This document shows positions 17,776 through 23,805 of a stretch of DNA of 64,000 bases, one piece after another. This stretch comes from a virus. The stretch's first letter is position 1; every line of letters begins with the position of its first letter. The position numbers and the translations under genes were made by a program. The stretch is from the IMG/VR virus record IMGVR_UViG_3300050490_000084. The stretch is one strand, 5' to 3'. The notes below the pieces were generated by a model. It was given only the letters and a program-made list of their open reading frames with translations, had not been told where the DNA came from and did not search any database.

Positions 17776-17850
17776 GCGCTCCTAGCTCAGTTGGTAGAGC
17801 GCCCGGTGTAAGCAATCGGGAGGTCAATGGTTCGAAACCATTGGAGCGCA
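17776..17850 (+). tRNA. tRNA-like RNA with 9-nt anticodon loop (central AAG)
   Basis: Acceptor GCGCTCC/GGAGCGC, same D-arm, stem CCCGG/TCGGG, loop TGTAAGCAA, T-arm AATGG-TTCGAAA-CCATT; no encoded CCA. Confidence 0.75.
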
Positions 17851-17869
17851 CGAAGCGAAAGGACACGCC

Positions 17870-18295
17870 ATGCAAAAGCTCTATGTCGTCACGCGGTCAA
17901 ACCTGAGTCCCGGCGCGATCGTCGCGCAGTCCTGTCACGCCGTGAGCGCCTTCGCGGTACGCTTTCCCGATGAGCATCGCACCTGGCACGCGCACGGCCA
18001 GAACCTCGTCGTGCTCGCTACTCCCGACGAGTCAGCGCTCGATTGGCTGATCCGCGCACTCGAGGGCGTGCACCATATCCCGTGCGCGGCGTTCTTCGAG
18101 CCCGATCTCGACCACGCGCTCACGGCGTTCGCGGTGAGTGACCGAGCGGCGAAGCTGCTCTCGCAGCTGCCGCTCGCTTTGCGAGCTCCGCGCTGCTCGG
18201 ACTGCAAGGAAGGCCAGCTCGTCCCATCTGCGCGCGCTGCGCCTAGTAGTGATCTCCGCCGAAGATGTGACCGTCACCATGCGATAGCTCGTTAG
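17870..18295 (+). CDS. pth2: peptidyl-tRNA hydrolase II (PTH2)-family protein
   Basis: KLYVVTRSNLSPGAIVAQSCHAV...NLVVL...FFEPDLDHALTAFA pattern; AAGGA RBS. Confidence 0.75.
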   Translation: MQKLYVVTRSNLSPGAIVAQSCHAVSAFAVRFPDEHRTWHAHGQNLVVLATPDESALDWLIRALEGVHHIPCAAFFEPDLDHALTAFAVSDRAAKLLSQLPLALRAPRCSDCKEGQLVPSARAAPSSDLRRRCDRHHAIAR

Positions 18296-18596
18296 CCCAC
18301 TCGCGCGCGGTCACTTTCAAAAACCAGTAAACCTGAGTCGGATCTGGCACGCCGTTGTGCGTGAGCGCCTGCTGGTACTCGCGGGGATCGTCCCATTTTT
18401 CGTTCGGTGATTCGCAACACACGGCGATGAGCTCGTCGTCGGGCACCTCGCGCTTGAAGTCATCGGAAGCGGGACAGCCATCGTAACAACCGTCGCCGTC
18501 GCTAAAGTCAGCGCAGTAGAGTCGGAGCGCTTCCTCTTTGCTCTCGGCCGCGTAGAAGCCGCCCTCGGCGAATTCGTATAGGTGCTTTTCGGTCAT
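18243..18596 (-). CDS. acidic hypothetical protein
   Basis: Coupled ORF. Confidence 0.55.
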   Translation of the reverse strand: MTEKHLYEFAEGGFYAAESKEEALRLYCADFSDGDGCYDGCPASDDFKREVPDDELIAVCCESPNEKWDDPREYQQALTHNGVPDPTQVYWFLKVTAREWANELSHGDGHIFGGDHY

Positions 18597-18853
18597 TGCT
18601 TCGATGCTTTCAAGACACGATCTCGTAATGCGACGTACTCTTTGCCGATCTGAAATAAATCGCCCGCGTAGCGGGTATGCTGCACGAGCTCGCCAGCGAG
18701 AGCGGCTCTAACATATCTCCGAACCGCACCGAGCACCCGTTGCTCCATGGCAGAGAGCTCGTCGTACTCCGCGCGACAGCCAGCGCATCTCTCCGCGCAC
18801 TCCCGGAGCTCCTTGCCCCAGTTACAGGCAGCGGTACAGGTGTGCTCAGACAT
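18593..18853 (-). CDS. hypothetical protein
   Basis: Coupled ORF. Confidence 0.5.
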   Translation of the reverse strand: MSEHTCTAACNWGKELRECAERCAGCRAEYDELSAMEQRVLGAVRRYVRAALAGELVQHTRYAGDLFQIGKEYVALRDRVLKASKQ

Positions 18854-19214
18854 TGGGCTTCTTCACGAGCTCCCGGAGGTAGATCGTGTTTCCTTTCGCG
18901 CTGGGCGAATAGAGCACATCCTTGTAGCGGAGATTGCCGCGGCCGAGGGTTGCGACGACCTTCTCGGCTGCCGCGTCGCGCGTCTTGATGGCGTCGACCA
19001 CCATCTGTCGAGCGCGCGCGACGACCTTGTCGGCCTTCTCCCACTCTTCGAGCAGGCGGCGCTTGGTGGCTTCCGTGGCGAGCTCGGGCTTGGCGGCGAG
19101 CGCGAGTGCTTCGAGCCGATCTTTGCCGCTCGGCTTCGGTTCGGGGGCAAGTGCTTGGGCGAGATCTTGGCGGTTCTCACTCATGTTTTTCTGGATCCTG
19201 ATGGGCGCGTTCAC
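18846..19214 (-). CDS. coiled-coil hypothetical protein
   Basis: ORF at a divergent junction. Confidence 0.6.
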   Translation of the reverse strand: MNAPIRIQKNMSENRQDLAQALAPEPKPSGKDRLEALALAAKPELATEATKRRLLEEWEKADKVVARARQMVVDAIKTRDAAAEKVVATLGRGNLRYKDVLYSPSAKGNTIYLRELVKKPNV

Positions 19215-19300
19215 GGTGGGATACCACTACGATGCCATCACGGTGCTGTCAATGTTAGAATTTGCGCCCCGAGGCGGCGGCGCGGTAAGATCCCGGCGCG

Positions 19301-19600
19301 ATGCAAATCCAACACCCGAATGTCTCTTGGGTCCTCTGCGGGCAATCCATCGGCGGCAGCAGCTGGCAATGCTCCTGCCAAGTGTGCGGCGCACAGATGG
19401 GATCTTTTGGATCTGCTCAGGCAGCAGACGCCTTCGCGCGAGTGCACTCGGCGCATCAGAGCGCGAGCCCAACGCACTACGGGCTCGGAGATCTGATTGC
19501 TAAGGCGACGAGCGCAGTCGGGATCAAACCGTGCTCTCCGTGCGAAGCGCGGAGGCGCGCCATGAATGGGGCGTTCCCGCAAGTGCTGCGGAAACGCTGA
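19301..19600 (+). CDS. small Cys-rich protein (GLGD..GIKPCSPCE.RR motif)
   Basis: CQVC and PCSPC motifs; converges on the array's distal end. Confidence 0.55.
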   Translation: MQIQHPNVSWVLCGQSIGGSSWQCSCQVCGAQMGSFGSAQAADAFARVHSAHQSASPTHYGLGDLIAKATSAVGIKPCSPCEARRRAMNGAFPQVLRKR

Positions 19601-19619
19601 TCGATCTGCTCCACGAGCA

Positions 19620-21274
19620 GTCCCGGCTTCCGTCGGCGCCGAGCTGCCTCCACACGCTTTTTATCCGCGTTGCACCACCGACAGAGAATCTGGATCCCGG
19701 CTTCCGTCGGCGCCGAGCTGCCTCCACACACCTGGGGGAGCGACGAGAAGCCTAAGAGCAAGAAGGTCTCGGCTTCCGTCGGCGCCGAGCTGCCTCCACA
19801 CAGAGACCATCGGACTCATGCCGCGTCTGACCATCGCCGTCTCGGCTTCCGTCGGCGCCGAGCTGCCTCCACACCCTCGTGAACGCAAGGAAACGAAAAT
19901 GTCCGATTATAGTCTCGGCTTCTATCGGCGCCGAGCTGCCTCCACGCCACGCACAAGCGCGCGGACTGCTATGCGATGACATGTCTCGACTTCCATCGGC
20001 GCCGAGCTGCCTCCACACTTCGCAGAAGCGGTCAATTGCGTGGTCGCCGGACTCGTCCCGGCTTCCATCGGCGCCGAGCTGCCTCCACACGCCGTCGGGC
20101 GAGCGCCGCACGCTCTGCATCGTGAGTCCCGGCTTCCATCGGCACCGAGCTACCTCCACACGCGCTCTTTTTTATCCGCATTGCACCACCGGCAGAGAAT
20201 CTGGGTCCCGGACTTCCGTCGGCGCCGAGCTGCCTCTACACCGCGAGGAGTGACCTGCACACCCGACCTCCGGGCCCCGTCCCGGCTTCCGTCGGCGCCG
20301 AGCTGCCTCCACATCGGACCACGGCTCGGACAAACCGGTTGGGTGCTTATCGTCCCGGCTTCCGTCGGCGCCGAGCTGCCTCCACACCGGATCGTCCCCC
20401 GGCGTGGCTGCGTGTGGACTCGACCCGTCTCAGCTTCCGTCGGCGCCGAGCTGCCTCCACACTCGCGTGCACCGAACCGCGACGAATCGGAACTGCTTGT
20501 CTCAGCTTCTGCCGGCGCTGAGCTACCTCTACACAAGCGCCAGGGATCCAGGTGATTCGTCCCGGGTGTCTCGACTTCAGTAGGCGCCGAGCTGCCTCCA
20601 TACTCCTCCGCTAGGCTGCGCAAGGGGTCGTCGCGAGATCGTCGCGTCTCGGCTTCTATCGGCACCGAGCTGCCTCCACACCGCGCCGACGAGTAGGTCG
20701 CGCCCTCGCCCGCCCAGCAGTGTCTCAGTTTCCATCGGCACCGAGCTGCCTCCACACGTTCCGGTCAAAGTCCTGGCAAATGATGTACTTGAGCCGTCTC
20801 AGTTTCCATCGGCACCGAGCTGCCTCCACACGCAGGAGGACTTTCCACTCAGTCCGACGCGGGGCGGCTGTCTCAGTTTCCATCGGCACCGAGCTGCCTC
20901 CACACCGCGCTCCCTGGTGCACCTGCTCCGCCCGCACCTGTCTCAGTTTCCATCGGCACCGAGCTGCCTCCACCCCCCCCCTCACGAGCGAAGGGCTCGC
21001 GCATGACGCGACGAAGGTCTCAGTTTCCATCGGCACCGAGCTGCCTCCACACTTTCCTGCCCCCTGACGAGGTCGCTGTGCTGCATGAGTCTCAGTTTCC
21101 ATCGGCACCGAGCTGCCTCCACACACTTGGCGCAGCTGCTCCGCGTCGGCGCGCACCAGCGGCAAGGTCTCAGTTTCCATCGGCACCGAGCTGCCTCCAC
21201 ACACCCGAATCCTCGCGCATGCCGCGCTCACTGCAAATGTCTCAGTTTCCATCGGCACCGAGCTGCCTCCACAC
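19620..21274 (-). CRISPR. CRISPR array: 23 repeats (36 nt; one of 37 nt) and 22 spacers of 33-43 nt
   Basis: Minus-strand repeat GTGTGGAGGCAGCTCGGTGCCGATGGAAACTGAGAC (leader-proximal) and GTGTGGAGGCAGCTCGGCGCCGACGGAAGCCG(A/G)GAC (distal); uniform near 21274, degenerate distally. Confidence 0.98.
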
Positions 21275-21343
21275 CGGTTCAATTGTCACAGAACAATTCC
21301 GCCCACTTACCGGACGACTTGCGAGCGCCTCGAAAACTATCGC
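21275..21343 (-). promoter_or_regulatory. putative CRISPR leader
   Basis: 69-nt, AT-richer gap between the effector stop and the most uniform repeats; contains GATAGTTTTCGAGG, identical to 30622-30635. Confidence 0.55.
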
Positions 21344-22810
21344 CTACTCAGCCGCGTCGAGTAGCTGATTCTTCGCGTTATTTGCATCCTGATCCCAGGC
21401 AGCACCGCAGCTCTCGCAATCATGACGAAGCTCGCGCGCCTTGTCCCATTTGCAGAGCGCCCCACAGGCATGGCAAGTGAGCGTGCGCTTGGCGGGCTTG
21501 AGCACCTCACATCGCGCGCCGAAGACGCTCTGGATCTCTAAGCGCAAGCAATGCGGGCCCACCAAAAACCGGTAGTGCCGCGCTGCCGGAATGTCATCCT
21601 CGCTTGGTGTCCGCTTGACGACGCTCCGCATATCGAAGGCCTCGATGATGACCGAGTCATAGCTCGCGGCGAGCTTGCGCGCCCAGAGTCGATAGATCTC
21701 TCGGCGAGCGCGCAGCACGGAAGCATACTCGTCCCGCTCCCACTGGTAGAGGTGCCGATCACGGCGAGCCCAGTGCTCAGCATCCGTTCCATCTCGCTTT
21801 GCCGCTTGCTCCATCGTAAACCACTCGCGCCCGAGTTCACGGTGAATCGCGTCGGGATCCGCGAGCGCGGAGCAGCGTGCTTTTGTTCTGCGGGCGGCAT
21901 CTCCGAGGTAGGCGGCCGCGATCTCATCGGCGAGGCTCCGCAATGACTCGGCATGCTTCTGCCGCCCGAGCAGCGCATCAGGGAACACGCAACTCGTCTC
22001 GTTCCCGTCGTCGTCCACCGCGTACGCGACGCGGATGCCGCCCGGCACCCGGCGCCAGCCGAAGTTGACCGCGCAGCGGCCGAGGCCGCCCTGGGCGACG
22101 TGCACGCGCGGCGCTGCGTCGATGGTCAAATGTACGGAGTAAGTCCACCGATCTCCGATGCGATCGATCACGAGCCGCGCGAAGATCACCCGCACGTCAT
22201 AGGGCACGCCCTCCTTCTCGGCGCGCTCGGGGAGCGGCCGGTGATAAACGATGGGCACCTCAAGCGAGAGCCCCTCCCGCAACCGGAGCGTGACCGTGCG
22301 GTGCTTCCCGTCGCCCGAGATTTGCACCGGGCCCGGCTTCGTGAGCACGGCGCTTGCCTTGAGCCCGGTTGCCCCCTGCACCGTCGCTGCCAGGATCCCC
22401 TCCCCATCGAAGCGCCGGTGCCGCGGGCGCGCGCAAGTCATGACGCGCTTCAAAAAATCATAGCCCTTCTTCGAAGCCCGCTGCCGCGCCTTGAACTCAT
22501 CCGAACGCCGCGTCTTCATGGCAGCCGCCACCATCTCCGTCACGGCTTGCTTTTGGCCCCAGCCGATCGGCGTCGCGGCCCCGGCCGCGCGGCACGCGGC
22601 GTTGTAGGCCAGCCGATGCTCGGTCTTTTGCTCGTCGGAGAGCGGAGCGGATTGCGCGAGCTCGACGATGTCTCGCGCGGCGATGCGCCAGCGCTCGATC
22701 TCGATGAGCGCGTTGTAGAAGGCGTTCGAGTGGCGCTGGTACTGAAGCAGATCTTCGAAGGTGCCGCCGATGACCTTGGGTTTCAGCGCGCCGTATTTGT
22801 AAACGATCAT
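21344..22810 (-). CDS. cas12m: compact type V-M (V-U1) Cas12m-like effector, probably nuclease-deficient
   Basis: RHRRFDGEG, VYHRPLP, RuvC-I AVNFGWR (N249), RuvC-II IIE390, Zn finger C446/449/465/468, RuvC-III WDQD475; adjacent array; motifs parallel Cas12m as I recall it (RHHRFDG, ALHLGWR, YDQD). Confidence 0.85.
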   Translation of the reverse strand: MIVYKYGALKPKVIGGTFEDLLQYQRHSNAFYNALIEIERWRIAARDIVELAQSAPLSDEQKTEHRLAYNAACRAAGAATPIGWGQKQAVTEMVAAAMKTRRSDEFKARQRASKKGYDFLKRVMTCARPRHRRFDGEGILAATVQGATGLKASAVLTKPGPVQISGDGKHRTVTLRLREGLSLEVPIVYHRPLPERAEKEGVPYDVRVIFARLVIDRIGDRWTYSVHLTIDAAPRVHVAQGGLGRCAVNFGWRRVPGGIRVAYAVDDDGNETSCVFPDALLGRQKHAESLRSLADEIAAAYLGDAARRTKARCSALADPDAIHRELGREWFTMEQAAKRDGTDAEHWARRDRHLYQWERDEYASVLRARREIYRLWARKLAASYDSVIIEAFDMRSVVKRTPSEDDIPAARHYRFLVGPHCLRLEIQSVFGARCEVLKPAKRTLTCHACGALCKWDKARELRHDCESCGAAWDQDANNAKNQLLDAAE

Positions 22811-22839
22811 GATTGGTCCTATTTGCCCAAAAAGTTGCG

Positions 22840-22987
22840 GTCTCGGATTCAGTCGGCTCCGAGCTGCCTCTGCACAGATTCGTCAGCCAAAGTCCTTCGG
22901 GTCTCGGCTTCTATCGGCGCCGAGCTGCCTCAAATCTCTTCCATGACCCGGGTCTCGGCTTCTATCGGCGCCGAGCTGCCTCAAATC
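22840..22987 (-). CRISPR. 3-repeat mini-array upstream of the effector gene
   Basis: Repeats at 22840-22875, 22901-22936 and 22952-22987, same family with altered 5' ends; spacers of 25 and 15 nt. Confidence 0.85.
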
Positions 22988-23805
22988 TCTCGCCCGTCAT
23001 CGGGGATCGCTCGCACGTAGGACTCCTTCCCCGGCGTCGCCACGAAGAGCGCGAGCGTGAGCATCTCCTCGGCTGCCGGGATCGTCCAGTCATGCACGCA
23101 GAGCGGGTACCCCGCAGTCAGATCGTACAGACTCCGAAAGCTCTGGTGCGTGGGCACCCGCGATCGCACGTACTGAGGAGCGTTCCGGGAGGTGATCACG
23201 TACAGGTGCCCGGTGTCGGCGCCGCGCTGCAGGAACGATTGCTCGGCGTTGAAGTCCCTGAGCTGATCCGGATTCAGGAAGCTCCGGAGCACGCGGGTCG
23301 CGCGGTGATCGATGGCCTCGAAGTCGGGGGGCGGGCAGCCTTGCGTGGGAGCCGCGACCGTGACGGCCGCGGTCGGCTGGGGCTTCTGCTCGATCTCGGC
23401 CGCTGGCTCTTCCCGCTCAGGCTCTGCATCCAAGATCCCGGCGAGCTTTTCCGTCACCTCTTCGATGACGCCGTTCTTGTAGCGCACGACCGAGAGTAGA
23501 TCTCGACCGGGCTTCATGGGCTTCGCCAGCGCCTTCTGCACTTTGCTGATCGGTGCGCCGATGACGACCGCTTGCTCGGAGAGCGCATCGAGATCGAGCC
23601 TCTGGAGCGCTTCCTGATTACCCCACGGCGCCTTGGTCAGGCCGCTCCGCTTCGCCTCTACCTGCAAGGCTTTCATCGCCACCTTCTCGGTGGAGGACAG
23701 GCCGACGATCACGACCCGCGTCTCCCCATTGCTCACTCTCTCCAAGCGAATGTCCCCGTAGAAGCTCGGCAGATACCACGTGAGTGTCGGGCGCGGGTGA
23801 TTCAT
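22981..23805 (-). CDS. hypothetical protein
   Basis: MNHPRP start with AAGGA RBS; ends inside the first mini-array repeat. Confidence 0.65.
   Translation of the reverse strand: MNHPRPTLTWYLPSFYGDIRLERVSNGETRVVIVGLSSTEKVAMKALQVEAKRSGLTKAPWGNQEALQRLDLDALSEQAVVIGAPISKVQKALAKPMKPGRDLLSVVRYKNGVIEEVTEKLAGILDAEPEREEPAAEIEQKPQPTAAVTVAAPTQGCPPPDFEAIDHRATRVLRSFLNPDQLRDFNAEQSFLQRGADTGHLYVITSRNAPQYVRSRVPTHQSFRSLYDLTAGYPLCVHDWTIPAAEEMLTLALFVATPGKESYVRAIPDDGREI

Follow-up and report, generated by a model that had tools for sequence, protein, structure and literature searches.

A CRISPR array and a Cas12m-family gene in a complete phage genome

We analyzed a 64,000-nucleotide stretch of DNA (the window) from the IMG/VR virus record IMGVR_UViG_3300050490_000084, which carries a CRISPR array next to the gene for a Cas12m-family effector, with emphasis on one spacer of this array, spacer 18, that resembles a gene of the phage itself. 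The window corresponds to bases 6136-70135 of a 135,429-bp phage genome (G000), a record with direct terminal repeats and 100% completeness that encodes an integrase, sigma factors and a lysis gene. No Cas1 gene is present in the complete genome. An independent ENA assembly (L048) is identical to the window over 20.5 kb and contains both spacer 18 and its imperfect target, indicating that the locus is not an assembly chimera. The features that bear on spacer 18 are listed below in window coordinates.

11896..12417, minus strand: target gene for a 173-aa Cys-rich protein, in a leftward run of early/accessory genes; the protospacer covers codons 35-45, and the G+C content at third codon positions is 0.89
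12278..12281, plus strand: 5' flank CCGT, with a pyrimidine pair at -4/-3 as candidate protospacer adjacent motif (PAM); same flank in relatives
12282..12315, plus strand: imperfect own protospacer; the plus strand is the non-target strand, and the guide mismatches are at positions 7, 10, 29 and 32
19620..21274, minus strand: CRISPR array with 23 repeats, each 36 nt long, and 22 spacers (33-44 nt)
20906..20939, minus strand: spacer 18, 34 nt between two 36-nt repeats; guide read on the minus strand
20940..20975, minus strand: repeat giving the 5' handle of the spacer-18 CRISPR RNA (crRNA), with one substitution
21275..21343, minus strand: leader separating the first repeat from the cas12m stop codon; conserved in relatives
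21344..22810, minus strand: gene of the Cas12m-family effector (488 aa); RuvC triad N249-E390-D475, zinc-finger TNB domain at the C terminus

Spacer 18 closely matches a gene of its own phage

Spacers were numbered from the degenerate far end of the array, so that spacer 18 is fifth when counted from the leader. In the minus-strand reading it matches 12282-12315 at 30 of 34 positions, with a perfect 18-nt core at guide positions 11-28. This match, with its core, had been reported in an initial annotation made from the letters alone and was reproduced here. The reading given there for the gene's frame, RAPWCTCSART for the spacer versus RAPWCTCSTCT for the gene with two synonymous and two missense differences, is also borne out in gene 11896-12417. 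By comparison, the best matches of the other 21 spacers on the whole 135,429-bp genome cover at most 21-28 of 33-44 positions (at most 28/42), and 300 shuffles of spacer 18 gave best matches of 20-25/34, arguing that the 30/34 match did not arise by chance.

The target protein has no match in Pfam, PHROG or NCBIfam; its AlphaFold model is weak (predicted local distance difference test score 64) and gave no fold match in the PDB and no atlas lead. Two genes upstream of it in the leftward run, gene 13004-13537 carries a Pyr_excise domain (PF03013, pyrimidine dimer excision) according to the precomputed annotation of contig L048.

The guide is read from the minus strand

The orientation of the crRNA can be read from the repeats. 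Repeats from 10 arrays or array parts (10 variants) align without gaps, and in the minus-strand sense they form a 6-bp stem (positions 13-18 with 29-34) that ends two bases before the spacer, together with a 3-bp pseudoknot (8-10 with 19-21). Over the 10 repeat variants, 90 of 90 cells of the stem and pseudoknot pair (100%), and four pairs are changed on both sides. None of 500 shuffles reached this level and no slid register came near it. Several of the pairs are G-U wobbles that would be A-C mismatches in a plus-strand RNA, which forms no stem. Further support comes from the layout of the locus, where the eight repeats beside cas12m are uniform apart from one base, the far (left) end is degenerate, and the conserved leader lies on the cas12m side. 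The covariation, the wobbles and the uniform repeats and leader beside cas12m indicate that the crRNA derives from the minus strand, with its handle 5' and its guide 3', and the initial annotation thus had the crRNA sense right. The crRNA of Cas12m2 likewise has its handle 5' and its guide 3' (PMC10442227).

Several irregularities of the arrays were noted. The repeat at 20940-20975 is the sole variant among the eight young repeats (handle position 2, GTGTGG to GGGTGG in the RNA sense), and the run of C in spacer 19 follows it. For a CRISPR array, the spacers vary unusually in length (33-44 nt in the window; 19-63 nt in the arrays of relatives). Spacers 1 (19656-19693) and 8 (20162-20205) are identical at 34 of 38 positions, and no target was found for either anywhere in the DNA searched; their likeness suggests two alleles of one target, as would be expected of an array directed at a variable population, and repeated capture from variant alleles. 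No spacer is common to the arrays of different phages that we compared, pointing to fast spacer turnover.

The effector belongs to the Cas12m family

Both sequence and fold place the 488-aa effector in the Cas12m family. In a phmmer comparison with PDB chains the best match was the Cas12m chain 23vw_A (E 3.8e-36, residues 178-483), and a Foldseek search with the AlphaFold model returned Cas12m2 (8HHL, 8HHM and 8HIO) and GoCas12m (8PM4) as the top four structures (E 2e-15 to 2e-13), with Cas12f and TnpB ranked below the Cas12m structures. The triad N249-E390-D475 is invariant across 17 aligned homologues of the clade, and the RuvC-I aspartate is replaced by asparagine ('NFGWR') in all 17. The N-E-D combination is not among the RuvC combinations assayed in the Cas12m literature that we found. 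D-E-D, H-D-D and N-D-D are the triads of Cas12m proteins that bind DNA without cleaving it and silence transcription (PMC11013384; silencing also PMC10442227). From the asparagine in RuvC-I we infer that the 488-aa effector has lost cleavage and would bind its target without cutting.

About 60 homologues of the effector, of 435-520 aa, occur in metagenomes, several of them on contigs of 110-136 kb, which points to a family of phages from soil and rhizosphere with this system in every member. In four public runs compared to positions 11000-23000, the identical strain was found in rhizosphere samples and a 93%-identical relative in one soil run (X8), which contains the relative's (L009-type) allele together with some contigs at least 99% like the window. 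Array-like repeat pairs were absent from GTDB genomes, which gave no host or prophage lead, and an IMG/VR search with the repeat pattern returned only two further phages, G001 (IMGVR_UViG_3300048892_000198, 110 kb) and the more distant Cas12m phage G002 (IMGVR_UViG_3300012532_000215, 41 kb). GenBank phages held no DNA related to the phage and no spacer matches.

Closer matches to the guide in the orthologues of relatives

The target protein has eight homologues, all from related phage contigs. Two proteins that are 90% identical to it (P0003 and P0011) read CTCSART at the site, which is the translation of the spacer. More generally, xAR occupies the site in 7/9 homologues and STC is found in this phage only. 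Judged from these alignments, SART is the family consensus and the phage's own STCT is derived.

At the nucleotide level, the contigs that encode P0011 (L008/L009, from the 93%-identical relative) match the guide at 32 of 34 positions, the exceptions being 11 and 29; for L007, a 131-kb relative, the figure is 31 of 34, with mismatches at 4, 29 and 33. As the guide fits the relatives' gene better than the phage's own copy, spacer 18 is probably aimed at competing relatives. When the common ancestor of the window and L008 alleles is reconstructed with L007 as the outgroup, it and the guide are the same except at position 29; the three changes specific to the window and the one specific to L008 are all absent from the guide. 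The spacer must thus stem from the ancestor itself or from a third lineage of the window/L008 clade.

The mismatches in the phage's own copy do not stand out from the divergence of the gene. The window and L008 target genes are 93.3% identical, and the protospacer contains four differences where 2.3 are expected, which is not significant. The same is true of the window-specific changes alone (three versus 1.3 expected). Because neither excess is significant, a dedicated escape signature cannot be claimed.

The initial annotation had proposed looking for a perfect protospacer in related phages; we searched for one and did not find it. The 18-nt core returned six unrelated chance matches in IMG/VR, a degenerate 27-nt pattern had no match in metagenome_contigs or genome_contigs, and protein-guided locus searches with the target protein found nothing in IMG/VR or metagenome_contigs. 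Among the matches listed from the four public runs there was also no new protospacer allele.

Related phages target one another

We compared 110 spacers from eight phages with G000, G001 and G002 as whole genomes and with L007, L008, L010-L013 and L042, relatives that are represented by fragments. Five spacers lie at the leader end of the array of L011, a relative that, like L010, has DNA 78-79% identical to G000. Two of the five match G000 at 36/36 and 34/35 (mismatch at 24) and a third at 29/36; one L010 spacer matches G000 at 33/36. Capture from their own genomes would predict about 28/36 at this level of identity, indicating that these spacers were taken from phages like the one studied here. 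The arrays of relatives, in the fragments compared, contain spacers against this phage. The gene matched at 29/36 by the L011 spacer, G000 96280-96828 (outside the window), encodes a DUF1643 protein (PF07799, E 5.5e-41). The other G000 genes matched by relatives' spacers have no family match.

Three of the targets are sense to their gene and three antisense, which fits targeting of DNA rather than RNA; a strand bias of the kind that RNA targeting would suggest was looked for and not found.

Seven independent protospacers, a small sample, carry CC, CT, TC, TC, TC, CT and CT at positions -4/-3. A pyrimidine pair in all seven has a chance probability of ~6e-5 in one register and ~2e-3 when registers and base classes are allowed for, and from these alignments we propose the pair at -4/-3 as a candidate PAM. 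The targets of spacer 18 and of the 34/35 L011 spacer further share the flank YCGT. The initial annotation had noted the flank CGT next to the spacer 18 target and contrasted it with TTN as the PAM of Cas12m; the flank was confirmed (CCGT), whereas TTN does not hold for Cas12m as a whole. TTN is the PAM of MmCas12m2 (PMC10442227); a richness in T and C marks the PAMs of the family (PMC11013384), and measured ones include YTN, YTTS and TTV (bioRxiv 10.64898/2026.03.26.714355). Since the carrier and its relatives share CCGT, the PAM cannot be what spares the phage's own gene.

A guide that may discriminate between sister phages

We consider it probable that spacer 18 was captured from a close relative and now acts to exclude kin phages. 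The capture from a relative's orthologue and the phage-versus-phage competition suggested in the initial annotation are supported by the matches of 32/34 and 31/34 in relatives versus 30/34 in the phage itself, by the SART allele and by the cross-targeting spacers. According to the mechanism that we propose, the spacer would have been taken from the orthologue of gene 11896-12417 in a third lineage inside the clade of this phage and the L008/L009 phage. The array would be transcribed from the minus strand into a pre-crRNA and matured with the 36-nt hairpin-and-pseudoknot handle, and the spacer-18 crRNA would join the phage's own Cas12m-family protein, which is predicted to bind without cutting. 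If a relative with a matching allele then co-infects or superinfects, the complex would bind about 100 nt inside its coding region and block the competitor's early leftward operon, including the genes downstream of the target.

The phage's own allele would escape through its mismatches at guide positions 7 (an rG:dT wobble) and 10 (rC:dA), in the mismatch-intolerant PAM-proximal part. MmCas12m is described as highly intolerant to mismatches in the first 11 nt, and the activity of PmCas12m is abolished by a single mismatch within 12 nt, or a double mismatch within 14 nt, of the PAM (both bioRxiv 10.64898/2026.10.26.761838; 10.64898/2026.03.26.714355). By these rules the own copy is probably spared. 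The guide-target heteroduplex of Cas12m2 is 17 bp long (PMC10442227), and the mismatches at positions 29 and 32 would be irrelevant if the 488-aa clade behaves like the studied Cas12m proteins. The sampled relatives, with one wobble-type mismatch each (at 11 or 4), may be partly targeted or may have escaped.

Several observations weigh against this explanation. Selection for self-avoidance was not shown; the mismatches in the own gene lie within background divergence, as described above. Searches of IMG/VR, GenBank phages, GTDB genomes, the metagenome collection and the four public runs yielded no perfect protospacer. Both sampled relatives also mismatch the guide once in its first 11 positions and may escape too. 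The mismatch rules come from enzymes that are ~30% identical to the effector over the C-terminal half and ~100 aa longer, and we infer both the expression of the array and the acquisition of spacers without Cas1 in this phage. Finally, a target was found for spacer 18 alone among the 22 spacers of the window, and 49 spacers of L007 (18), L013 (19) and L042 (12) match nothing in the compared DNA.

Near-self guides and alternative explanations

Guides that nearly match their carrier are also found in the two other Cas12m phages. A spacer of the G001 main array matches the phage's own cas12m gene (1850-1887) at 36/38, with mismatches at 6 and 28, compared with 31-34/38 for the cas12m genes of other phages; it may be aimed at the effector genes of competitors. 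Similarly, spacer 17 of G002 matches its own genome (12275-12311) at 35/37, with mismatches at 3 and 13, at a site 22 nt from a degenerate solo repeat (12334). For both spacers the best known match is the carrier itself and the donor is unsampled. Because near-self guides recur in this way, an old capture from the phage itself and a tuning of its own expression have to be weighed against capture from a relative. In the window, additional degenerate repeats make self-directed guides plausible in this phage:

22840..22987, minus strand: mini-array of three extra degenerate repeats upstream of cas12m (22840-22875, 22901-22936 and 22952-22987)

Other unusual arrangements of repeats were seen in related phages. 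L007:1-1830 contains two tandem arrays of nine repeats each, with different repeat variants, separated by ~500 nt that end in an apparent 3' remnant of a second cas12m gene and a second leader. G002 has, besides a 27-repeat array, five solitary repeats between genes (5693, 9030, 11751, 12584 and 27874), all in one orientation. At the other end of the G001 contig (110351-110692), six degenerate repeats at short spacings make up a mini-array that runs in the opposite orientation.

An old self-capture followed by divergence would explain spacer 18 as a piece of the phage's own ancestor, with the own gene having drifted, or having been selected to escape silencing, and the relic now fitting slower-evolving relatives better. 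In an infected cell no DNA is more abundant than that of the phage, and self-spacers would not be lethal with an effector that only binds. The spacer does equal the inferred window/L008 ancestor except at position 29, and both seed mismatches are missense changes of the window lineage at otherwise conserved residues. Moreover, the near-self spacers of G001 and G002 match their own genomes best. However, only four spacers are newer than spacer 18, which sits among the young, uniform repeats, and a repeat next to it is a variant peculiar to this phage; the spacer would have had to survive the ~3.8% lineage-specific divergence of the gene in arrays whose lack of shared spacers indicates fast turnover. 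Position 29 would require an extra mutation in the spacer itself, and the window-specific changes are, as noted, not significantly enriched in the protospacer. Overall, we regard this origin as unlikely.

The three near-self cases could also reflect a general feature of Cas12m phages that has been selected, in which each phage keeps guides against ancestral or sister alleles of its own genes (here 11896-12417, in G001 cas12m and in G002 the site beside the solo repeat). We hold this to be decidedly unlikely. As the effector would only bind, such guides could discriminate between kin at the level of alleles, silencing sister genomes that recombine or superinfect; they could also weakly tune the expression of the carrier and in this way drive the divergence and speciation of the phage lineage.

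The initial annotation had also raised a tuned self-repression, in which weak binding of the own gene would dampen or time the leftward early operon. Effectors of this family do silence by binding (PMC11013384, PMC10442227), the mini-array lies upstream of cas12m in this phage, and G001 and G002 have near-self spacers. At the own locus the PAM-like flank is intact and the mismatch at position 7 is a wobble. The two mismatches in the first 11 guide positions nevertheless disfavor this proposal, as mismatches such as those at 7 and 10 abolish activity in MmCas12m and PmCas12m (bioRxiv 10.64898/2026.10.26.761838; 10.64898/2026.03.26.714355). In addition, the relatives fit the guide better than the phage itself, the site is inside a coding region rather than in a promoter, and no other array examined contains a spacer against the target gene, which has no orthologue in the G001, G002, L013 and L042 DNA compared. 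We therefore find self-repression quite improbable.

Chance similarity or an assembly artefact has a negligible probability: the core is GC-rich and Gly/Cys-codon-like and was found alone, by chance, in six unrelated IMG/VR contigs, but the reading is effectively refuted by the shuffles (at most 25/34), the background of the other spacers (at most 28/42), the better matches of the relatives' orthologues in the same frame and the 20.5 kb of identity to the L048 assembly. The remaining probability falls to a guide that is now useless or to something that we have not considered.

Comparison with known systems and significance

Capture from a close relative for use against kin has a precedent in the portogloboviruses SPV1 and SPV2, Sulfolobus viruses whose mini-CRISPR arrays target close relatives and which are protected from self-targeting by point mutations at their own orthologous locus (Medvedeva et al. 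2019, PMC6858448). Virus-borne spacers against relatives and a mutated own locus are common to both cases, and here too the array of a relative targets the phage. SPV1 and SPV2 have one or two spacers, no cas gene and rely on the cutting type I machinery of the host, whereas the phage described here has 22 spacers and its own effector. As that effector belongs to a binding-only family, a near-self guide would silence rather than destroy, so that self-tolerance would be less stringent.

The closest enzymes are those of type V-M (MmCas12m2, GoCas12m, MsCas12m and PmCas12m), which give the best sequence and fold matches and share the 36-nt repeat with a stem and pseudoknot and the handle-plus-guide crRNA (PMC10442227, PMC11013384, bioRxiv 10.64898/2026.03.26.714355), as well as the lack of adaptation genes, a T/C-rich 5' flank and a non-canonical RuvC site. 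The system in the window differs in the size of its effector (488 versus 577-614 aa), in its triad (N-E-D versus the tested D-E-D, H-D-D and N-D-D), in the position of the candidate PAM pair (-4/-3 versus TTN/YTN at -3/-2) and in being phage-borne, and its activities are predicted.

The myxophage MV-1 also has a Cas12m gene beside an array, in a complete genome that lacks cas1, cas2 and cas4; its MvCas12m has 610 aa and a D-E-D triad, and no protospacer was found for its eight spacers (bioRxiv 10.64898/2026.09.14.751636); here, in contrast, protospacers were found in the phage itself and in relatives. CRISPR-Cas arrays of huge phages (>200 kb) target competing phages, and repression by a nuclease-dead effector has been proposed for them (Al-Shayeb et al. 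2020, PMC7162821). Those systems also have arrays without adaptation genes and spacers against the genes of other phages, but they use Cas12j and other effectors in genomes above 200 kb, and near-self allelic discrimination was not described. What is known, then, is virus-versus-virus targeting by the arrays of phages and other viruses; what is new is the setting, a long array together with the phage's own, presumably binding-only Cas12m from a compact N-E-D clade.

This locus makes a probable CRISPR-mediated conflict between sister phages, waged with an effector predicted only to bind, concrete and open to testing: the guide, the probably spared own allele, two partly matching alleles of relatives and the spacers of relatives against this phage are all known. 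The only paper on a phage-borne Cas12m that we found reported no protospacers, and the targets described here show what such systems aim at. The flanks suggest a PAM other than TTN for the compact 488-aa clade, which may interest tool developers. Finally, since binding would not be lethal, the case bears on how much self-similarity a virus tolerates in its own guides.

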